64,000 nt of DNA from assembly GCA_937864195.1 (NCBI GenBank), contig CALMJG010000020.1:945-64944 (forward strand), read 5' to 3'. This document shows positions 3,841 to 62,581 of this stretch, one piece after another. The stretch comes from an uncultured Novosphingobium sp. (GTDB lineage: Bacteria > Pseudomonadota > Alphaproteobacteria > Sphingomonadales > Sphingomonadaceae). A program made the translations under genes and the position numbers. Under the pieces are notes generated by a model, which did no database searches, had not been told where the DNA came from, and saw only the letters and a list, made by a program, of their open reading frames with translations. Numbering within the stretch: the stretch's first letter is position 1; each line of letters begins with the position of its first letter.

Positions 3841-4517
3841 AGGCCGTTTCCACTATCCGCGCAGGCCTGCTTGCCGCCGCTGCGCTGCTGACCACCGGCG
3901 CCGCTTCGGGCGGCTGGAACCAGACCGTCGCCGAGACAGCCAGCGGCACCCATGTGCTGGGCAACCCGGCGGCCAAGGTCAAGCTCACCACCTTCGTCAG
4001 CTACACCTGCCCGCACTGCGCCCAGTTCGAGACCGAGGCCGAGGCGCCTTTGCGGCTGAGCTATGTCGCCCCCGGCAAACTGTCGATCGAGGTGCGCCAC
4101 GTCGTGCGCGATCCGGTGGACCTGACCGCAGCCATGCTGACGAACTGCGGGGCGAAGGAGAAGTTCTTCCTCAACCACGCCGCCTTCATGCGCGGCCAGT
4201 CGCGCTGGATCGCGCCGATGGGCGCGGCCAGCGCCGCCCAGCAGCAACGCTGGCGCAATCCCGACATCGGCCAGCGCAACCGGGCGATCGCCAGCGATTT
4301 CGGGTTCTACGCGATCATGGCCTCGCGCGGCTACGATCGCCCCAGCGTCGACAAGTGCCTGACCGACAAGGCGATGGAAGCCCGGCTGATGAAGCAGAGC
4401 CAGGAGGCGGTGGCCCTGGGCGTCAGGTCCACGCCGGGCTTCGCGATCAATGGCACGGTGCTGGTCGGCACCAATGAATGGGCCCTGCTGCGCCCGCAAC
4501 TCGACGCGCGCTTCTGA
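3837..4517 (+). CDS. DsbA-family thiol:disulfide oxidoreductase, paralog 1 (signal peptide)
   Basis: 226 aa with a GTG start in a GTGA overlap with the upstream stop. Signal peptide, CPHC active site, and the shared motif LGNPAAKVKLTTFVSYTCPHCAQF. Confidence 0.75.
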   Translation: MKAVSTIRAGLLAAAALLTTGAASGGWNQTVAETASGTHVLGNPAAKVKLTTFVSYTCPHCAQFETEAEAPLRLSYVAPGKLSIEVRHVVRDPVDLTAAMLTNCGAKEKFFLNHAAFMRGQSRWIAPMGAASAAQQQRWRNPDIGQRNRAIASDFGFYAIMASRGYDRPSVDKCLTDKAMEARLMKQSQEAVALGVRSTPGFAINGTVLVGTNEWALLRPQLDARF

Positions 4518-4536: not shown

Positions 4537-5247
4537 ATGACCCGCTTCACCCTTGCCTTCGCTCTTGCCGCTCTGGTCGCGGCACATCCGGCTGTCGCCG
4601 CGCCGAAGAAGCCCGTGCCCGCCGCCGCGCCGACGCCGGCGCCCGCCCAGCCCGTGATCCGCACCGCCGAGGGCGGCTATCTGCTGGGCAACCCCCAGGC
4701 GCCGATCAAGGTGGTGGAATTCGTCAGCTACACTTGCCCGCACTGCGCGCATTTCCATTCCGAATCCGCCGCGCCATTGCAGGCAAAGTACATTGCCCCG
4801 GCCCACGTCTCGGTGGAAGTGCGCCCGTTCCTGCGCAACGCGATCGACGTTACCGCCACCCTGCTCACCACCTGCGGGCCGGCGTCCAGGTTCCACGGCA
4901 ACCATGCGCTGGTCCTGCAGCGCCAGTCCGAATGGCTGCATTCGCCCAGCGCGACAGAGCTCAAGCGCTGGCAGCACCCCGATTTCGCCACGCGCACCCG
5001 CAACATGGCGCACGATCTGGGGCTTTACGCGCTGATGCAGACGCGCGGCTACAAACCGGCCGAGCTGGACCGCTGCCTGTCCGACCGCGCCGCGGCCGAA
5101 CGGCTGGCCGACCAGACCGAGGCCGCGACCGACAAGATCGGTGTGCGCGGCACCCCCAGCTTCACGATCAACGGCACGCTGCAGAATTTCTATGACTGGC
5201 CGAACCTGCGCGCGGCGCTCGATGCGCTGACGCAGGGCTTCAGCTGA
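4537..5247 (+). CDS. DsbA-family thiol:disulfide oxidoreductase, paralog 2 (signal peptide)
   Basis: Start trimmed to ATG 4537 (MTRFTLAFALAALVAAHPAVA). CPHC active site within LGNPQAPIKVVEFVSYTCPHCAHF. Confidence 0.75.
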   Translation: MTRFTLAFALAALVAAHPAVAAPKKPVPAAAPTPAPAQPVIRTAEGGYLLGNPQAPIKVVEFVSYTCPHCAHFHSESAAPLQAKYIAPAHVSVEVRPFLRNAIDVTATLLTTCGPASRFHGNHALVLQRQSEWLHSPSATELKRWQHPDFATRTRNMAHDLGLYALMQTRGYKPAELDRCLSDRAAAERLADQTEAATDKIGVRGTPSFTINGTLQNFYDWPNLRAALDALTQGFS

Positions 5248-5320: not shown

Positions 5321-6082
5321 ATGACTGCCCATCGCTTCTCCCGCCTCGCATTCGCCGCCGCCCTTGCTCCGCTGGTGCTGGGCCTGGCCGCCTGCAACAA
5401 CAAGGGCGAGGACGCCCCCGCCGGCCTCTCCGGCCAGCCGATCGCCAAGATCGCCCCGCCCGCAGGCAAGGCCTGGTCGGACGTGGTGACGATCACCCCG
5501 GAACTCGGCTACCGGATGGGCAACCCCGAGGCGCCGATCAAGGTGGTCGAATATGCCTCGCTCACCTGCCCGCACTGCGCCGAATTCTCGCACGAGGCGA
5601 CTGCCGAACTGCGCGACCAGTTCGTCGCCAGCGGCCGGGTCAGCTATGAGATGCGCAACATGATCCGCGACGGGCTGGACCTCTACCTGACCCAGCTGAC
5701 CCGCTGCGGCGCGCCCGAAGGCTATTTCGCGCTGACCGACCAGACCTTCGCCAACCAGGCCGCCTTCTTCAAGACCGCGCAGGACGCCGGCAAGGCCGCG
5801 CAGGAAGCCGCCTTCTCGCAGCCGCCCGAAAAGCGCGGGCTCGCCATCGCCAACCTGGCCGGCATGACCGACTTCTTCGCCGCGCGCGGCATTTCGAAGG
5901 AACAGGCCGCCGCCTGCCTGGCCGATACCGCCAAGGCCACCACCCTCGCCAACGCCTCGACCGAACAGGGCGAGAAGTACAAGATCGAGGGCACGCCGAC
6001 CTTCATCATCAATGGCGCCAAGCTTGACGCGAACACCTGGCCGCTGGTCAAGGCGGAGCTCGAAAAGCTCGGAGCGCGCTGA
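5321..6082 (+). CDS. DsbA-family thiol:disulfide oxidoreductase, paralog 3 (probable lipoprotein)
   Basis: Start trimmed to ATG 5321. Lipobox LGLAAC. CPHC active site within MGNPEAPIKVVEYASLTCPHCAEF. Confidence 0.75.
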   Translation: MTAHRFSRLAFAAALAPLVLGLAACNNKGEDAPAGLSGQPIAKIAPPAGKAWSDVVTITPELGYRMGNPEAPIKVVEYASLTCPHCAEFSHEATAELRDQFVASGRVSYEMRNMIRDGLDLYLTQLTRCGAPEGYFALTDQTFANQAAFFKTAQDAGKAAQEAAFSQPPEKRGLAIANLAGMTDFFAARGISKEQAAACLADTAKATTLANASTEQGEKYKIEGTPTFIINGAKLDANTWPLVKAELEKLGAR

Positions 6083-6120: not shown

Positions 6121-9100
6121 ATGCGCATCAAGCGGCTCAAGCTCAGCGGCTTCAAAAGCTTCGTCGAGCCTGCCGAACTGCGCATCGAACCCGGCCTTAC
6201 CGGGGTTGTCGGCCCCAACGGCTGCGGCAAGTCCAACCTGCTGGAGGCGATCCGCTGGGTCATGGGCGAAAGCTCGGCCAAGTCGATGCGCGGCGGGGGC
6301 ATGGAAGACGTGATCTTCGCCGGCACCGCGCAGCGCGCGCCGCGCGACTTCGCGGAAGTCGTGCTCCACGCCGATACGGGTGACGGCGAGAACGAACTGG
6401 AAGTGGTGCGCCGGATCGAGCGCGGCGCGGGCAGCGCCTACCGCGTCAATGGCCGCGACGTGCGGGCCAAGGACGTGGCGCTGGTCTTTGCCGATGCGGC
6501 GACCGGCGCCCACTCCCCCGCGCTGGTCAGCCAGGGCCGGATCGCCGCCGTCATCGCCGCCAAGCCCGCCGAGCGGCGGATGATGCTGGAGGAAGCGGCA
6601 GGGATCGCCGGGCTCCACGTCCGCCGCAAGGATGCCGAGCAGAAGCTGCGCGCCACCGAGGCCAATCTCGCCCGGCTCGAAGACCTGATGGGCCAGCTCG
6701 ACCAGCAGATCGGATCCTTGCGCCGCCAGGCCCGCGCGGCGGAACGCTACAAGGCGCTGAGCGAGCGCATCCGCCTGGCCGAAGCGCGGCTCGTCTTCGC
6801 CCGCTGGCGCGATGCCGCGAAGGCCGCCGAGGCCGCCCGGGCCGAAGCGCAGGGGGCCGAAGCGCGCGTTGCAGAAACCCAGGCCGCGATGAAGGCCGCG
6901 CAGAACGCCCAGCACGCGAGCGCGCAGGCTCTTGCCGCGGCACGCGACGAGCTGGCCGACCGGCGCGACGATGCCACGGCTCACGGCCACCGCATGGCCC
7001 AGCTGACCAGCCAGCTTGAAGCGGCGGAACAGCGCCTGAAAGACCTCGACCGCCAGCGCCAGCGGCTCGAAGAGGACCAGCAGGAAGCCGACCGCCTGAC
7101 CCGCGACGCCGCCGATGCCCTCGCCCGGCTGGAGCGTGATCTGACAAGCGGCGAGGACGCCCTGCGGGCCGACGAAGCACGCCGACCCGCCGTTGCCGCC
7201 GCGCTTGACGATGCCGACCGCAGCCTGCGCGCCGCCGAACTGGCGCTGGCCAAGGCGACCGCCGACCAGGCCGGGGTCGAGGCCGAATGGCGCGTGGCCG
7301 ACGCCGCGCTGACCGCCGCGCAGCAGCGCCTTGTCCGCCTCGATGGCGAAGTACGGCGGCAGGACGACCTGCGCGCCGCGCTCTCGCGCGAAGGCGATCC
7401 CGATGCCGCGCTGGCCGAGGCCCACCAGCGGCGCGCCGCCGCCGAAACGAAAGTGGCCGAAGCCCGCGCCGCGCTGGAGGCGCAGCAGGCCCGGCGGAGC
7501 GAGCTTCAGGCCGCGCGCGATGCTGCCTCCTCCGCGCTGGCCGAGGCCCGCGCCGAACTCTCGGGCGTGGAGCGCGAACACACCGCCCTGCTGCGCGACC
7601 GTGAAGCGCGCGCCAGGCAAGCCAGCGCCAAGCATGGCCTGCCGGTGGCGCTCGACCGGGTGCGCGCCGCGCCGGGCTATGAACGCGCGCTCGCCGCCGT
7701 GCTGGGCCGCGATGCGAAAGCGCCGCTGGGCGCGGCGCCCGACGATGGCGACGGGCGGTTCTGGACCGGGGCACAGGCCCCCGCGCCGGTCGCGGACAGC
7801 CTTGCGGCCCATGTCAGCGAATGCCCACAGGAACTCGCCCCGCGCCTCGCGCTGGTCCACGTGGCCGAGCAGGACGATGGCCGCGCGCTCGCTCCCGGCG
7901 AATGGCTGGTGACGCTGACGGGCCGCCTGCGCCGCTGGGACGGCTTCGTCGCGCGCGGCGAAGGCGCGGCGGAAGCGGCGCGGCTGGAGGCGGACAACCG
8001 CTTTGCCGCATTGGAGGCCGAACTACCCCCACTACGCGCCGAGCTTGCCTTTGCCGAGGCCCAGGCCAAGTCCGTTCAGGACGAACTGGCCGCAATCCAG
8101 ACCGGCGCGATTGCCGCCGAACGCGCACTGGCTGCCGCCGCCGAGGCCGAACGCGCCGCCCTGCGCGCTGTCGATCAGGCCGAAGCTGCCAAGGCGCGGC
8201 TCGAAACCCGCCGCGCCGAACTCGCCGCCGCCGCCACCGACCTTGCCGAACAGCGCGCCGGGGCAGAGGCCGAACGCGCCGCCGCAGAGGAACGCCGCGC
8301 CGCCCTGCCCGATCCCGCCGCTGGCCGCGCCCAGCTGGCCGCCGCACAGGCCCGCCACGATGGCGCGCGCTCCGCGCTCCAGGCCGCCACCGCCGCACTT
8401 GCCGCGCACGACCAGGCAATCGCCGTCGCGCGCGAACGGACCAATGCCCAGCGCGCCGACATCCGGTCTTGGCAGGCCCGCGCCGGGGATGCCGCAGGCC
8501 GCCTCGCGCAGATGACGCGCCGCTTCGAGGAGATCGAAGAGGAACGCGGCGTCGTCGCCGCCAAGCCCGCCGGACTGATGCGCGAGATCGAGGACGGCGA
8601 GGCCGTGCGCACCCGCCTCGCCGCCGAACTGGCCGCCGCCGAAACCCGCGTCGGCGAAACCGCCGAAGCCGCGCGCCGCGCCGAACAGGCCTTCGCGGCT
8701 GCCAACGAGGCGCTCGCCTCCGCGCGCGAGGCCCGCGCCGGCGCTGCCGCCCGCGCCGAGAACGAGGAGGCCCGCCGCGCCGAGATGGCGGGCATTTCCG
8801 GTGAACGCTTCCAGTGCCCGCCGCCGCTGCTACCCCAGCGCTTCGACTTCGCCTCAGCCGAAGTCGGCCCCGCTCCGCAGGAAAGCGCCGAGCACGACAA
8901 GCTGATCGCCGACCGCGAGCGGATCGGCCCGGTCAACCTCGTCGCCGCCGACGAACTGGCCGAAGCCGAAGCGCGCCACGGCACGTCGCTGGCCGAACAG
9001 GCCGAACTGACCGAAGCCGTGCACCGCCTGCGCGGCTCGATCGGCAATCTCAACCGCGAGGGGCGTGAACGGCTGCGCGCCGCCTTCGAGGCCGTGGACC

Positions 9101-36690: not shown

Positions 36691-37434
36691 ATGGACCGGC
36701 TGATCTGGACGGCGGTTTCCGGCATGTCGGCCTCGATGGCCCGGCAGCGGGTGATCGCCAGCAACATGGCCAACGCCCAGACCATCGGCTTTCGCGCCGA
36801 AGTCATGCAGTTCACGCCGATGACGCTGAAAGGCCCCAGCCTGGAAGCGCGCGCGCTGAGCGACGCGGCGGTGCGCGGCGCGTCGATGGCGGTGGGGGCG
36901 ATGATCCCCACCGGCCGCGCGCTCGATGTCGCGGCGCAGGGCGCGGCGATGCTGGCCGTCCAGGCCGCCGATGGCGGCGAGGCCTATACCCGGCGGGGCG
37001 ATCTGGCCGTCTCTCCCAACGGGCTGCTCGTGAATGGCGAGGGCGCGCCGGTGCTTGGCGAGGACGGCCCGATTGCCGTGCCGCCCGGCAGCGACGCCTC
37101 CATCGCCGAGGACGGGGCCGTGCTGCTGCGCGACCGCGCCAACCCGGAAGCCCCGCCGCAGCGGATCGGCCAGCTCAAGCTCGCCTCGCCGCAGGGCAGC
37201 CGGATCGAAAAGGGCCTCGACGGGCTGTTCCGCGTGGTCGGCGGCGGCGCCCTGCCCACCGATGCGGCGGCCCGCCTGCTGACCGGCACGCTGGAACAAT
37301 CCAACGTGAAGCCCACCGAAGTGCTGGTCGAGATGGTCGAGGCCCAGCGCCTCTTCGACATGCGCACCAAGCTGGTCGCGACCGCCAAGGAAATCGACGA
37401 AGGCGGCGCCAGCCTGATGCGGATCAACGGATAA
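36691..37434 (+). CDS. flgF: Flagellar basal-body rod protein FlgF
   Basis: 247 aa. Rod motifs NMANAQTIGFRA… and C-terminal LEQSNVKPTEVLVEMVEAQRLFDMRTKL. Confidence 0.85.
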   Translation: MDRLIWTAVSGMSASMARQRVIASNMANAQTIGFRAEVMQFTPMTLKGPSLEARALSDAAVRGASMAVGAMIPTGRALDVAAQGAAMLAVQAADGGEAYTRRGDLAVSPNGLLVNGEGAPVLGEDGPIAVPPGSDASIAEDGAVLLRDRANPEAPPQRIGQLKLASPQGSRIEKGLDGLFRVVGGGALPTDAAARLLTGTLEQSNVKPTEVLVEMVEAQRLFDMRTKLVATAKEIDEGGASLMRING

Positions 37435-37448
37435 AGGACTGAAAGACG

Positions 37449-38237
37449 ATGCCCAGTTCCGCCCTTCACGTCGCCCGCACGGGCCTCGAAGCGCAGGACG
37501 CGCGGATGCGCGTGATCGCCAATAACCTCGCCAATATCGGCACCACCGGCTTCAAGCGCGACCGCGCCAATTTCGCGACGCTCGCCTATCAGGACGCGCG
37601 GGTGGCGGGCCAGCAAAGCTCGAACGAGACGGCCTATGCCACGGGCGTGAACCTGGGGACCGGGGTGTCGATCCAGTCGACCACTTCGATCACCACGCAG
37701 GGCACGCTCAATCCCACCGGCAACGCGCTGGACATGGCGCTCGACGGCGATGGCTATTTCCAGGTGCAGCTGCCCGGCGGGCGGCTGGGCTATACCCGCG
37801 CGGGCAATTTTACCCGTTCCGCCGAGGGCCAGCTGGTCACCGCGCAGGGCTATGCCGTCCAGCCGCCGATCACCATTCCCGAAGGGGCGAGCGGAGTGAC
37901 TGTCGGCCCGGACGGCACCGTTTCCGTCACCGTGGCGGGCAGCACGGCGCCGACCGAGCTGGGCCAGATCACCGTCGCCAGCTTCGCCAATCCGGCGGGT
38001 CTGCAGGCGCTGGGCGACAACTACCTGTCCGAAACCGCCGCCAGCGGCGCCGCGCAGCTGGGTGCGCCGGGCGATGGCGGGCGCGGCAACCTGCGCCAGG
38101 GGATGCTGGAGGCCTCCAACGTCAACGTGGTCGAGGAACTGGTCGACATGATCGAATGCCAGCGCGCCTACGAGATCAATTCCAAGATGATCAGCGCCGT
38201 CGACGAGATGCTGCGCAACGCGAACCAGACCCTGTGA
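37449..38237 (+). CDS. flgG: Flagellar distal rod protein FlgG
   Basis: 262 aa. ALHVARTGLEAQDARMRVIANNLANIGTTGFKRDRA and C-terminal LEASNVNVVEELVDMIECQRAYEINSKMI. Confidence 0.9.
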   Translation: MPSSALHVARTGLEAQDARMRVIANNLANIGTTGFKRDRANFATLAYQDARVAGQQSSNETAYATGVNLGTGVSIQSTTSITTQGTLNPTGNALDMALDGDGYFQVQLPGGRLGYTRAGNFTRSAEGQLVTAQGYAVQPPITIPEGASGVTVGPDGTVSVTVAGSTAPTELGQITVASFANPAGLQALGDNYLSETAASGAAQLGAPGDGGRGNLRQGMLEASNVNVVEELVDMIECQRAYEINSKMISAVDEMLRNANQTL

Positions 38238-38248
38238 GGAAGCCTACG

Positions 38249-38950
38249 ATGCCGCAGGCCATCGCCAGTGAACGCCCCTCCCGCTTTCGGGAGGGGAGTC
38301 TATGGGCAGCGGCGCTTTGCGCGCTGGCTTTGTCCACGCCCGCCCTCGCCAAGAAGCCCAAGCCCGGCTTCGAACCCGCCTTGCCCGCGCCGCCGCCGCC
38401 AGCCCCGCGCGCGGCGGACGGGGCGATCTTCAACGTCTCGGCCGGCTACGCCCCGCTTTACACCGGGCACCGCGCCCGCGCGGTGGGCGATCCGGTGACG
38501 ATCCTGCTGGTCGAGAACTTCACCACGTCCAAGTCCTCTGGCAGCAAGACCGAGCGCGGCGGCGGAGCCTCGATCACCCCGCCCACCGCCGGGCCGCTGG
38601 GCTTCCTCAATCCCGACGCCCTTAAAGCCAGCAGCCAGTCGTCGTTCAAGGGACAGGGCAATGCCACCCAGACCAGCACCCTGTCGGGCGAAGTCTCGGT
38701 GACGATTGCCGAAGTGCGGCCAAACGGGACCGCCCTGCTACGCGGAGAAAAACGCTTGCTGCTGAGCCAGGGCCAGGAATGGATCCAGTTTTCCGGGATC
38801 GTGCGCCTGGCCGACCTCGATTCGGACAGCCGCGTGGCCTCGACCCGGGTCGCAGACGCGCGGATCGAATATGCCGGCAACGGCTCGATCGCGCGCGCCG
38901 GGCGGGAAGGCTGGCTGTCCAAATTCTTCAACATCGTCAGTCCGTTCTGA
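38249..38950 (+). CDS. flgH: Flagellar L-ring protein FlgH
   Basis: Start trimmed to ATG 38249. Core motifs AVGDPVTILLVENF… and …RIEYAGNGSI…. Confidence 0.9.
   Translation: MPQAIASERPSRFREGSLWAAALCALALSTPALAKKPKPGFEPALPAPPPPAPRAADGAIFNVSAGYAPLYTGHRARAVGDPVTILLVENFTTSKSSGSKTERGGGASITPPTAGPLGFLNPDALKASSQSSFKGQGNATQTSTLSGEVSVTIAEVRPNGTALLRGEKRLLLSQGQEWIQFSGIVRLADLDSDSRVASTRVADARIEYAGNGSIARAGREGWLSKFFNIVSPF
38275..38296 (+). repeat. CCCTCCC/GGGAGGG-class hairpin inside the flgH 5' coding region
   Basis: CCCCTCCCG-cttt-CGGGAGGGG, a 9-bp perfect stem, 27-48 nt after the ATG. Confidence 0.8.
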
Positions 38951-38957
38951 GGAGATC

Positions 38958-40115
38958 ATGATGTTGAATTCGATGCTGCAAGCCATCGCCCCCTTTCTCC
39001 CATCCCGCTTGCGGGAGGGGAGAAGGTTGGCAGCGGCGCTGTGCGCGCTGGCGGTCGCTCTGGCACCCGCAGTTGTCCATGCCGAACGCGTGCGCGATCT
39101 TGGCACGTTCCAGGGCGTGCGCACCAACCAGCTGACCGGCTACGGCCTGGTCGTCGGGCTGAATGGCACGGGCGATGACAGCCTTGAATACGTCACCCAG
39201 GCGATGCGCGGCGTTTCGGGCCGGGTCGGAGTGCAATTGCCGCCCGGCGTCAATCCTGCCCTCAAGAACGCCGCCGCCGTGATCGTCACGGCCGACCTGC
39301 CCGCCTTCGCCAAGCCGGGGCAGCGGATCGACGTGACCGTATCGGCGCTGGGCAAGGCCAAGTCCCTGCGCGGCGGGGCGCTGATCATGACCCCGCTCTA
39401 CGGCGCGGACGGGCAGATCTATGCGATGAGCCAGGGCAACCTGGCGGTCGGCGGCCTCGGCATTTCCGGCGCGGACGGATCGAAGCTGACGGTCAATATC
39501 CCGACCGTTGGCCGGATCGCGGACGGCGCCAGCGTGGAGCGCGCGGTCGCCACCGGGTTCGACAGCGCAGACCTGCTGCGCTGGAACCTGTTCCAGTCCG
39601 ATTTCCTGACCGCCACCCGCGTGCGCGACGCGATCAACCGGCGCTGGCCCGGCACCGCGAGTGTCGAGGACGGCGTTACCCTGGCCCTGCGCCTCCCCGC
39701 CGAGACCGATGCGCGCGCGGCGATGATCGCAGGGATCGAGATGCTGGACGTGACCCCGGCGGAAACCGCCGCTCGGGTGATCGTCAACAGCCGCACCGGC
39801 ACCGTGGTGATCAACAGCGCGGTGCGGCTCTATCCGGCGGCGATCAGCCACGGCAAGCTGACCGTGCGGGTCGATGAAAGCCCCAAGGTGGTCCAGCCCG
39901 GGCCGCTCAGCCGGGGCCAGACCCAGGTCCAGCAGGACAGCACCCTGTCCGCCGAGGAAGCCGGGGATTCGGTGGTCCACTTCAAGCCCGGCGCCTCGCT
40001 CGCCCGGCTGGTCGATGCGCTCAACCTGCTGGGCACCAGCCCGTCCGATCTGGTCGCGATCCTTGAGGCGCTGAAACAGGCCGGGGCACTGAAAGCGGAA
40101 ATGGTGGTGATATGA
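38958..40115 (+). CDS. flgI: Flagellar P-ring protein FlgI
   Basis: Start set at the first of three close in-frame ATGs (38958/38961/38973), after RBS GAGGAG. Signal peptide ending VVHA, followed by ERVRDLGTFQGVRTNQLTGYGLVVGLNGTGD. Confidence 0.9.
   Translation: MMLNSMLQAIAPFLPSRLREGRRLAAALCALAVALAPAVVHAERVRDLGTFQGVRTNQLTGYGLVVGLNGTGDDSLEYVTQAMRGVSGRVGVQLPPGVNPALKNAAAVIVTADLPAFAKPGQRIDVTVSALGKAKSLRGGALIMTPLYGADGQIYAMSQGNLAVGGLGISGADGSKLTVNIPTVGRIADGASVERAVATGFDSADLLRWNLFQSDFLTATRVRDAINRRWPGTASVEDGVTLALRLPAETDARAAMIAGIEMLDVTPAETAARVIVNSRTGTVVINSAVRLYPAAISHGKLTVRVDESPKVVQPGPLSRGQTQVQQDSTLSAEEAGDSVVHFKPGASLARLVDALNLLGTSPSDLVAILEALKQAGALKAEMVVI
38997..39022 (+). repeat. CCCTCCC/GGGAGGG-class hairpin inside the flgI 5' coding region
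   Basis: CTCCCATCCCGC-tt-GCGGGAGGGGAG, a 12-bp stem with one mismatch. Its position is equivalent to the flgH hairpin. Confidence 0.75.
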
Positions 40116-40417
40116 CGCTGTCCCTCACTCACGCCGCTACCGCGCCAGCCGCCCCGCCATCGCCCGAGCGCCAGAAGCTGGCGCAGGCCGCAAGGCAGTT
40201 CGAGGCGATCTTCGTGCGCCAGATGCTCAGCAGCGCGCGCAAGGCCGATTTCGGCGGCGATGTGCTGGGCGGCCAGGGCCTCGACACCTTCCGCACCATG
40301 CAGGACGAACGCTTTGCCGACATCGCCGCCGAAACCGGGGCGTTCGGCATGGCAAGGATGATCGAACTGCAACTTGCCACGCAAGTTGCCCCGCCGTCCC
40401 GTTCGGGCCGGGAGTGA
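40112..40417 (+). CDS. flgJ: Rod-binding protein (FlgJ N-terminal domain only, no muramidase domain)
   Basis: 101 aa. Rod-binding motif AARQFEAIFVRQMLSSARKADFGGD…DTFRTMQDERFADIAAETGAFGMARMI. ATGA overlap with the flgI stop. Confidence 0.8.
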   Translation: MTLSLTHAATAPAAPPSPERQKLAQAARQFEAIFVRQMLSSARKADFGGDVLGGQGLDTFRTMQDERFADIAAETGAFGMARMIELQLATQVAPPSRSGRE

Positions 40418-46411: not shown

Positions 46412-46479
46412 CCGTTCGTGTCGAGCGTAGTCGAGACATGCAAGCGCTGACGTGTCTCGACTACGCTCGACACGAACGG
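46412..46479. repeat. Long perfect inverted repeat (27-bp arms, 14-nt loop), copy 1 of a repeat family
   Basis: CCGTTCGTGTCGAGCGTAGTCGAGACA…TGTCTCGACTACGCTCGACACGAACGG. It lies between the convergent GST-like and glpK genes and probably also acts as a bidirectional terminator-like hairpin. Confidence 0.9.
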
Positions 46480-46516
46480 AGGTGGTTTGGCGGAGTGAAG
46501 CCCAGGTTGGCGCCCC

Positions 46517-60194: not shown

Positions 60195-60262
60195 CCGTTC
60201 GTGTCGAGCGAAGTCGAGACACGGCAGCGCAAACGTGTCTCGACTTCGCTCGACACGAACGG
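60195..60262. repeat. Long perfect inverted repeat (29-bp arms, 10-nt loop), copy 2 of the repeat family, inside the fliP-fliQ intergenic region
   Basis: CCGTTCGTGTCGAGCGAAGTCGAGACACG…CGTGTCTCGACTTCGCTCGACACGAACGG. It differs from copy 1 by a paired (compensatory) T-to-A / A-to-T change in the arms. Confidence 0.9.
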
Positions 60263-60279
60263 ACCTCGGATGAAGAACC

Positions 60280-62458: not shown

Positions 62459-62473
62459 TCAACACGCCAAGAG

Positions 62474-62495
62474 CCCTCCCCCTCAAGGGGGAGGG
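62474..62495 (+). repeat. CCCTCCC/GGGAGGG-class hairpin after flhB (terminator-like)
   Basis: CCCTCCCCC-tcaa-GGGGGAGGG, a 9-bp stem starting 16 nt after the flhB stop, followed by TTGGGTGGGGGTTTT. Confidence 0.6.
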
Positions 62496-62535
62496 TTGGG
62501 TGGGGGTTTTCCCACGCCAGCGTCGAGCCCCAACC

Positions 62536-62552
62536 CCTCCCCGCCGGGGAGG
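62536..62552 (+). repeat. Second CCTCCCC/GGGGAGG hairpin in the flhB-fliD spacer
   Basis: CCTCCCC-gcc-GGGGAGG, a 7-bp stem. Confidence 0.5.
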
Positions 62553-62581
62553 CGCTAACCGGGGAAACTGCGCGAAATCCC

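Follow-up and report, generated by a model that had tools for sequence, protein, structure and literature searches.

The DNA analyzed here (the window) is a 64,000-nt stretch of contig CALMJG010000020.1 from an uncultured Novosphingobium sp. and contains a flagellar basal-body operon with flgF (36691), flgG (37449–38237), flgH, flgI, a short rod-binding flgJ and flgK. The genes for the L-ring protein (flgH) and the P-ring protein (flgI) share an 82-nt segment with a hairpin at its center, here called the leader cassette, and the second copy starts 724 bp from the first. The features of the two genes are as follows (loci of relatives and of metagenome contigs are referred to by L numbers).

38236..38242, + strand: Shine-Dalgarno (SD)-like sequence GAGGAAG of flgH, overlapping the flgG stop codon (38235–38237) and 6 nt from the flgH ATG; L001 shares the sequence up to here, after which the leaders diverge
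38247..38328, + strand: cassette copy H, a direct repeat, with a 5′ flank of 27 nt that begins with ATG 38249 (putatively MPQAIASER), a 21-nt solo repetitive extragenic palindromic (REP) hairpin (PSRFREG) and a 3′ flank (SLWAAALCALA)
38249..38950, + strand: flgH, L-ring protein of 233 aa (Pfam PF02107, E 1.7e-48); the exact 233-aa product is recorded in metagenome assemblies
38275..38296, + strand: hairpin H, CCCCTCCCG-CTTT-CGGGAGGGG, 9 bp (−20.8 kcal/mol, z −3.67), fitting the family pattern described below
38950..38956, + strand: SD-like sequence AGGAGAT of flgI, overlapping the flgH stop codon and conserved with L001 as TGAGGAGAT[C/G]ATGATG
38958..40115, + strand: flgI, P-ring protein, probable start ATG at 38958 or 38961 (Pfam PF02119, E 1.3e-125)
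38971..39052, + strand: cassette copy I, with 5′ flank (putatively MLQAIAPFL), REP hairpin (PSRLREG) and 3′ flank (RRLAAALCALA)
38997..39022, + strand: hairpin I, CTCCCATCCCGC-TT-GCGGGAGGGGAG, 12 pairs with one A/G mismatch (−19.8 kcal/mol, z −3.90)

Counted from the two ATG codons, 38249–38328 and 38973–39052 are identical without gaps at 63 of 80 positions, and with the two bases before each ATG included the match between 38247–38328 and 38971–39052 becomes 65/82. The boundaries of the module are sharp, and the similarity drops abruptly at both ends. When the 82-mer was compared with every position on either strand of the window, it scored 65/82 at 38971 and 42/82 as the next best value, against a background with a mean of 23.7 and a standard deviation (sd) of 4.1. 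No further copy of the 3′ flank was found in the window at ≤3 mismatches, nor of the 5′ flank at ≤2 mismatches. The flanks of the two copies match at 44 of 60 positions, with equal hairpin offset and frame, and the encoded peptides are identical in 19 of 27 residues. An earlier note on this DNA, made by hand count, had arrived at about 63/80 and at 19/27, had placed the hairpins at 38275..38296 and 38997..39022 (the latter with one mismatch) and had held FlgH and FlgI to be non-homologous. All of this is borne out by the computed alignment, by the folding energies listed above and by the assignment of the two proteins to unrelated Pfam families (PF02107 and PF02119).

The note had added that an identity no higher than expected for GC-rich signal-peptide codons would refute it. 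When the flgH and flgI leader regions of each of 72 relatives were compared with each other, the best 60-nt ungapped identity had a mean of 31.1 (sd 2.2) and a maximum of 37, whereas the same comparison gave 48/60 for the window and 53/60 for L002. The similarity of the flgH and flgI modules exceeds both that of real GC-rich leader pairs and chance. Identity of the 24-nt core of the 3′ flank is by itself weak evidence, because this core recurs by chance in two unrelated GC-rich bacteria. The same does not hold for the full unit, which consists of the 5′ flank, the hairpin at a fixed 27-nt offset and the 3′ flank; the 27-nt offset is kept in all copies. A complementarity between the 3′ end of the cassette (GCGCGCTGGC) and GCCAGCGCGC in flgG was taken as chance in a genome of 69% GC.

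The central 21 nt of the cassette (CCCTCCCGC-NNN-CGGGAGGGG) form a hairpin that is also present at flgG/flgH, flgH/flgI and flgJ/flgK junctions in 11 of 85 flagellar loci (7 kb each in relatives), and members of the same family lie at non-flagellar sites in Sphingopyxis and Novosphingobium. In the window the family pattern gave four matches (two sites, both strands counted) against 0.07 expected, and the family hairpin is represented there by the two cassette copies and one related double element. The full form in relatives is a double-hairpin element of ∼100 nt with two ∼33-nt arms that are mutual inverted repeats, separated by a variable spacer of ∼30–45 nt. Each arm is made up of the hairpin plus GGGGGAGGG/CCCTCCCC, so that the long form has the terminal inverted repeats of a miniature inverted-repeat transposable element (MITE), as has the related element of the window at 62462–62565. 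The cassette copies of the window hold the solo hairpin only. The related element is arranged as follows.

62462..62565, + strand: intergenic double-hairpin element after flhB, with hairpin 1 as CCCTCCCCC-TCAA-GGGGGAGGG, then TTGGGTGGGGG, a spacer, CCCCAACC and hairpin 2; aligned with the long forms of L002, L013, L003, L004 and L109

Two intergenic hairpins of the same class had already been noticed after flhB (62474–62495 and 62536–62552); both exist, as the two ends of this single ∼100-nt element, which by its alignment represents a related subfamily of the full-length element found inside the cassettes of relatives. Independent copies of the element, at non-flagellar sites and at the end of flgJ, carry unrelated flanks, so that the repeat includes neither the 27-nt 5′ flank nor the ∼33-nt 3′ flank. 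The central hairpin itself belongs to a dispersed REP/MITE-like family of Novosphingobium.

At the 3′ end of flgJ the double-hairpin element was found in L002 (4431–4527), L004 (4353–4468) and L005 (∼4375–4476). In these three the FlgJ open reading frame (ORF) runs into the element and gains ∼45 residues (..APLPPAGGVGGG..) before the stop. The flgJ of the window (40112–40417) encodes 101 aa that match the rod-binding domain PF10135 only, with no muramidase domain attached, and its end (40385–40417) has only a weak hairpin-like remnant. A 12-nt match (ARHL) of the L002 flgI cassette to the flgJ-end copy was judged to be chance.

The best matches to FlgI in a one-genome-per-species collection come from Novosphingobium and allied Sphingomonadaceae, with L001 as the top relative (92% amino-acid identity). 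Three exact-pattern scans were run over 185,579 species genomes, one genome per species. The 24-mer of the 3′ flank was found only in L002 flgH, L002 flgI and L013 flgH, apart from the two chance matches mentioned above. The scan with the 5′ flank and the left arm gave, among the matches listed, the known carriers and L109 flgI, the remainder being mostly chance matches in Actinomycetes and others. The scan with the 5′ flank and the whole hairpin gave L002 (both genes), L013, L003 and L109, in addition L209 flgI and L211 flgH, and also three copies of the repeat with chance flank matches. Inspection added L209 flgH, and L028 flgH, with a variant hairpin, came from the first locus set. This amounts to 11 cassette copies in 8 genomes with the window included (9 copies in 7 others). 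The cassette is carried by flgH in the window, L002, L013, L028, L209 and L211 and by flgI in the window, L002, L003, L109 and L209; L013, L003, L028, L109 and L211 have it in one gene only. No cassette was seen at any gene other than flgH and flgI among the matches listed.

Short cassettes with one hairpin and long cassettes with the full double-hairpin element both occur. The distribution is patchy: 135 of the 162 leaders in 81 genomes are plain and 27 carry some repeat, the nearest relative L001 has the cassette in neither gene, and in the FlgI tree most carriers fall into one clade with non-carriers interleaved, while L028 lies elsewhere. Within the species the cassette is stable, since metagenome (ENA) contigs L204–L207, >99.5% identical to the window, carry the exact FlgH protein and both copies, and inside the cassettes they deviate from it only at 38994, where two of the four have T>C (Phe to Leu, copy I). 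At least three unrelated palindromic repeat families occupy flgH and flgI 5′ ends in the clade. This fits the view that the leaders of these genes are a permissive site for repeats, where the product would be cleaved off. A profile of seven cassette peptides searched against 5.8 billion proteins gave nothing at E ≤ 1 from 66 candidates, and the known carriers were likewise missed.

Other repeats of the leaders include a FVIARSRRLRGNP..LDCFAALAMT type and a PLMLSLSKH..FDRLR.SG type, both read through at the same leader positions. Such repeats are found in the flgH leaders of L001, L004, L006, L010–L012 and L032 and in flgH or flgI of L008, L009, L017, L023, L056, L066, L068 and L077; L006 has three or four tandem copies before flgH. 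The LDCFA-type and LSLSK-type repeats are absent from the 64-kb window. As for the chance matches, the 24-mer GGGCAGCGGCGCTGTGCGCGCTGG is identical at 6850–6873 of L083 and 6107–6130 of L084, one of which is an Acidimicrobiaceae metagenome-assembled genome and the other unclassified, and its translation in either genome is WAAALCAL, within what looks like a signal or transmembrane segment. Exact 24-nt matches between unrelated leaders can arise from codon bias.

The reading of the cassette depends on where the two genes start. The ATGATG of flgI (38958/38961) and its SD are shared with the nearest relative L001 and lie upstream of the cassette, with 12–15 nt between the ATGATG and the cassette ATG. 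A gene caller run on conspecific metagenome contigs placed the flgI start at 38961 and the flgH start as in the window. The ATG at 38973 is the third in-frame ATG, as described earlier; it is unlikely to be the start of flgI, given the native ATGATG upstream. Judged from the sequence, flgI probably starts at 38958 or 38961, with ATG 38973 as an internal Met inside the cassette.

Signal peptides were judged by inspection and by alignment with relatives. The predicted Sec signal peptide of FlgH comprises residues 1–34 (38249–38350) with cleavage at ALA↓KK, placed by alignment with the leaders of relatives, and that of FlgI ends at 39083 (VHA↓ERVRDL). The FlgH leader ends in ...RFREGS-LWAAALCALALS-TPALA↓KKPKP and the FlgI leader in ...REGRR-LAAALCALAVALAP-AVVHA↓ERVRDLG. 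Both are in register with relatives (80 of them for FlgI) and have the n-, h- and c-regions of a Sec leader cleaved by signal peptidase (SPase) I; the mature N-terminus ERVRDLG of FlgI is conserved in the 80 relatives. FlgH is a lipoprotein in enterobacteria. The lipobox for SPase II (L-[AS]-[GA]-C) is lacking in FlgH of the window, where TPALA↓KK has no Cys at +1 and the only Cys of the leader (AALC-A) has Leu at −1. It is possible that this lineage has an unlipidated L-ring protein. The c-region of FlgH (38335–38356) varies in relatives, reading ..QACAGPKP in some Novosphingobium and LSAC or LAGC in the Erythrobacter-type L078–L080.

Comparison with relatives shows that whole leaders are replaced cleanly. 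L002 and L013 are ∼95% identical from flgG into flgI, except for the flgI leader, where a swap begins at the flgH stop codon and reaches the final four codons of the signal peptide. Between the window and L001 the identity is ∼90%, and both leaders differ. At flgH the two sequences part just past the SD and agree again from the c-region (..CCCGCCCTCGCCAAGAAG) on. At flgI they have the SD and ATGATG in common, after which the window has TTGAATTCG and the cassette, and L001 has ∼23 nt of plain leader; identity is back at GCTGGC. The 3′ flanks fall into two subfamilies, WAAALCAL and W-x-S-L-L/F-C-x-L, and each of them is present in both genes. In L002 the H and I copies have 31 of 33 3′-flank positions and a GTT codon in common, and the H and I copies of L209 share a derived variant of the second hairpin (CCCAT..ATGGG). 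As the flanks and the hairpin occurred together, in the scans, only at the starts of flgH and flgI, the cassette was probably copied between these two genes, more than once or with continuing conversion, and leader alleles probably turn over among lineages.

In our view the 82-nt segments are likely to represent a single chimeric, translated Sec-leader cassette present in two copies, in which the hairpin is most likely a passenger. The first 27 nt would encode M-(P/L)-(Q/K)-A-I-A-x-x-x, the 21-nt solo hairpin would be read as P-S-R-x-R-E-G and supply the arginines of the signal-peptide n-region, and the following 30–33 nt or so would encode (W/L)-A-A-A-L-C-A-L-A, most of the hydrophobic h-region. 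The c-region of each gene would then follow the cassette (ALA↓KK in FlgH, VHA↓ER in FlgI), and signal peptidase would remove the whole leader and leave the mature ring proteins unchanged. With the leader cleaved and the mature proteins unaffected, such a site would tolerate selfish DNA. One ring gene may have acquired a palindromic element that became fixed, in frame, at its start, and non-allelic gene conversion or short-patch recombination may then have placed a copy of the new leader on the other gene. Later the copies could have exchanged patches within genomes, with leader alleles being gained, lost or replaced between lineages. Absorption of a REP and copying of a leader cassette had been put forward as alternative origins of the module; both seem to apply and they are not alternatives, since the REP covers only the central 21 nt and the flanks need copying.

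Translation of the cassette is the most likely reading of its sequence. From an upstream start the reading frame runs open through each of the 11 copies, the elements inside leaders are 96, 96, 108, 93 and 102 nt long, all multiples of 3, compared with 91, 103 and 103 nt for the flgJ-end copies, and in the 5′ flank the Ala-Ile codons show synonymous variation only.

Several observations weigh against the cassette explanation or limit its reach. The H and I copies of the window are only 79% identical, and the flanks of H–H orthologues (49–52/60) are as similar as those of H and I within a genome (44–48/60). The 3′ flank is resembled by plain flgH leaders (L005, L007) as well as by plain flgI leaders (L009, L014), and no direction of copying is favored. 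A direction from flgH to flgI had been considered, as the plain L005 and L007 leaders align codon for codon with the 3′ flank, and was dropped since the fit of the L009 and L014 flgI leaders (MLRF..SILCALALL) is about as good. A workable signal peptide of FlgI could also start at the in-frame TTG at 39025, with the SD-like right arm upstream, or at the TTG of the loop, and part of copy I would then be a 5′ untranslated region (UTR). The double compensatory change in the CCCAT..ATGGG hairpins is explained equally well by selection on structure and by descent of a subfamily. The absence of the cassette from other genes rests on exact patterns and one genome per species, with one scan read from its listed matches only, and the cassette explanation leaves the origin of the 27-nt 5′ flank unexplained.

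The earlier note had suggested a role for the hairpin as a cis-acting RNA element 27–48 nt into each ORF, with an SD-like right arm and an anti-SD-like left arm, that imposes common translational or Sec-coupling control on the L- and P-ring proteins. We regard this as unlikely. Both hairpins are strongly stable, in every copy the hairpin lies at an offset of 27 nt from the cassette ATG, conspecific populations retain both copies, and the right arm in flgI lies at SD distance from an in-frame TTG. In addition, CCCGC-NNN-GCGGG of the second hairpin is replaced by CCCAT-NNN-ATGGG in one subfamily (both copies of L209, ∼4020–4040 and ∼4840–4860, and flgI of L109, 4929–4949), a double change that preserves pairing. 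However, the plain state of most leaders, the eight carrier genomes and the lack of the cassette in L001 do not suit a regulatory element, and its presence in one gene only in five carriers is unfit for coordinated control. The stems of window flgI, L028 flgH and L209 flgI have uncompensated mismatches, the identical hairpin is an ordinary repeat at unrelated sites, and in the folding predictions the hairpins leave SD and AUG unpaired, with 126-nt contexts that are not unusually structured (z −0.97 and −0.16). An Rfam scan of 37900–39400 at E ≤ 10 gave only noise, mainly eukaryotic microRNA and long non-coding RNA models and a plant-virus element. No terminators or promoters were found in 37400–40200, and for lack of terminators the hairpins are not intrinsic terminators. 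Apart from the one double compensatory variant, conservation, compensatory stem changes and occlusion of the SD or start were not seen, and the claim of common control is unsupported. The hairpin is most likely a passenger without a dedicated regulatory role. A second hairpin in the 3′ flank was rejected as a structural element, as it folds no better than shuffled sequences (z −1.3 and +0.25).

It is slightly less probable still that both proteins start downstream and that the modules are 5′ UTR or intercistronic repeats. The in-frame TTG codons inside and just after the flgI hairpin, with SD-like sequence upstream, would agree with this, as would the unusual length of the leaders (34–42 residues, up to ∼66 in L003). 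For flgH, however, no alternative in-frame start keeps a signal peptide, the sole downstream candidate, a TTG at ∼38330, leaving only ∼7 leader residues. The native SD and ATG that precede the cassette in each gene, the open frame of every copy and the restriction to multiples of 3 in leaders but not at the flgJ end also speak against an untranslated repeat.

We give about the same small weight to the idea that the entire ∼82–170-nt unit, flanks included, is a mobile element of the MITE type which inserts at gene starts and brings along a start codon and the capacity to encode a signal peptide. Its occurrence in either gene, the short and long forms, the patchy phylogeny, the clean boundaries and the presence of both flank subfamilies in both genes are what such an element would show. 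Against it, the three scans revealed no copy outside flgH and flgI among the matches listed and the window has two copies only. Moreover, the flanks are not mutual inverted repeats, they do not accompany bona fide hairpin elements at other sites, and the 3′ flank in flgH continues in register into leader sequence common to plain relatives.

A further reading, which we consider very unlikely, sees the cassette as a portable signal-peptide module that formed around a REP and has a function: its hairpin or the SD-like arm would pause or pace elongation at an early stage and thereby match the amounts of FlgH and FlgI that reach Sec. If true, the same long n-region and mRNA hairpin would be kept on both ring proteins by selection in some Novosphingobium lineages, and the recurrence at two genes would reflect selection and not tolerance and proximity. 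Finally, separate entry of the REP hairpin into each leader, with flanks alike merely as GC-rich, Ala/Leu-rich signal peptides, is highly improbable and largely refuted by the ≤37/60 of leader pairs from 72 relatives vs. 48 here: the 24-nt 3′-flank string does turn up by chance in a pair of unrelated GC-rich bacteria, again coding for WAAALCAL within a signal peptide, and leaders at either junction are demonstrably prone to repeats of several unrelated families, but convergence would not give flanks that agree at 44/60 with equal hairpin offset and frame, a 5′ flank (MPQAIA..) that is shared though not signal-peptide-like, and the same combination of flanks and hairpin in seven other genomes at these two genes only.

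Two further sets of repeats were seen in the window. Positions 46412–46480 and 60195–60263 are 90%-identical copies of a 69-nt near-perfect palindrome (CCGTTCGTGTCGAGCG.AGTCGAGACA...TGTCTCGACT.CGCTCGACACGAACGG), which is a second palindromic family of the flagellar region, unrelated to the CCCTCCC hairpin. Three tandem paralogous segments (3935–4028, 4662–4755 and 5494–5587; 71–77% identical) have a C-P-H-C motif and look like three adjacent DsbA/thioredoxin-like genes.

If the translated cassette is read correctly, a cleavable signal peptide can be a safe harbor for selfish palindromic DNA, in which PSRxREG can supply a basic n-region, and a chimeric leader, once formed, can pass as a unit between non-homologous neighbors in a natural form of signal-peptide swapping. 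In sphingomonads the starts of flgH and flgI and the C-termini of FlgJ are easily mis-called where repeats occupy the gene junctions, and in GC-rich genomes N-terminal similarity of unrelated secreted proteins need not mean a common function. The understanding of flagellar assembly is unaffected.

The cassette shares features with several known systems. The predicted signal peptides resemble the plain SPase I leaders of FlgI and FlgH in related Novosphingobium in A-x-A↓ERVRDLG (FlgI), in ALA↓K(K)PKP (FlgH) and in their n-h-c design. Plain FlgI leaders have 22 residues, whereas those of the window appear to have 41–42 (FlgI) and 34 (FlgH), with a long n-region that would hold the translated repeat. 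FlgH of the window also lacks the lipobox cysteine found in Erythrobacter-type relatives.

REPs are mobilized by REP-associated tyrosine transposases (RAYTs). Like REPs and bacterial interspersed mosaic elements (BIMEs) of Enterobacteria and Pseudomonas, the family described here consists of GC-rich imperfect palindromes of 20–40 nt, single or as inverted pairs with a spacer, which cluster at gene junctions of operons and have conserved stems and variable loops. Its consensus (CCCTCCCGC-NNN-GCGGGAGGG) is sphingomonad-specific, and while classical REPs are extragenic, some of them stabilizing upstream mRNA, the cassette copies appear to lie in coding sequence.

Ectopic gene conversion acts between duplicated bacterial segments such as tufA/tufB and pilE/pilS. 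The short tracts with sharp edges, the derived states common within a genome, and donor and recipient near each other on one replicon appear to be alike in the present case. Unlike tufA/tufB or pilE/pilS, flgH and flgI are not paralogues and have only the ∼80-nt leader in common, so the initial copy would have needed illegitimate or microhomology-guided recombination, after which the cassette itself would have given the homology.

Rickettsia palindromic elements (RPEs) and other intragenic MITEs, e.g., intragenic enterobacterial repetitive intergenic consensus (ERIC) sequences, are described as selfish palindromes lying in frame in coding genes (PMC10969869, citing Ogata et al., 2000). The cassette resembles RPEs in that a palindromic repeat lies within an ORF, leaves the frame unbroken, is presumably translated, sits at tolerated positions and is patchily distributed among close relatives. 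There is no sequence relationship between the two, and RPEs are elements of 100–150 nt, whereas the copies of the window are 21-nt solo hairpins. The host site also appears to differ, as the cassette would lie in the n-region of a cleavable signal peptide and the insert would never be part of the mature protein. Copying of an element together with host flanks between non-homologous neighbor genes, as proposed here, is not a described feature of RPEs, and a literature search gave no description of a repeat in a signal peptide that spreads with its host flanks between such genes. The closest analogue in kind thus seems to be the in-frame insertion of RPEs or MITEs in coding genes; what would be new is the signal-peptide site and the propagation between genes, which would extend the RPE-type picture of selfish DNA in coding genes to export signals.

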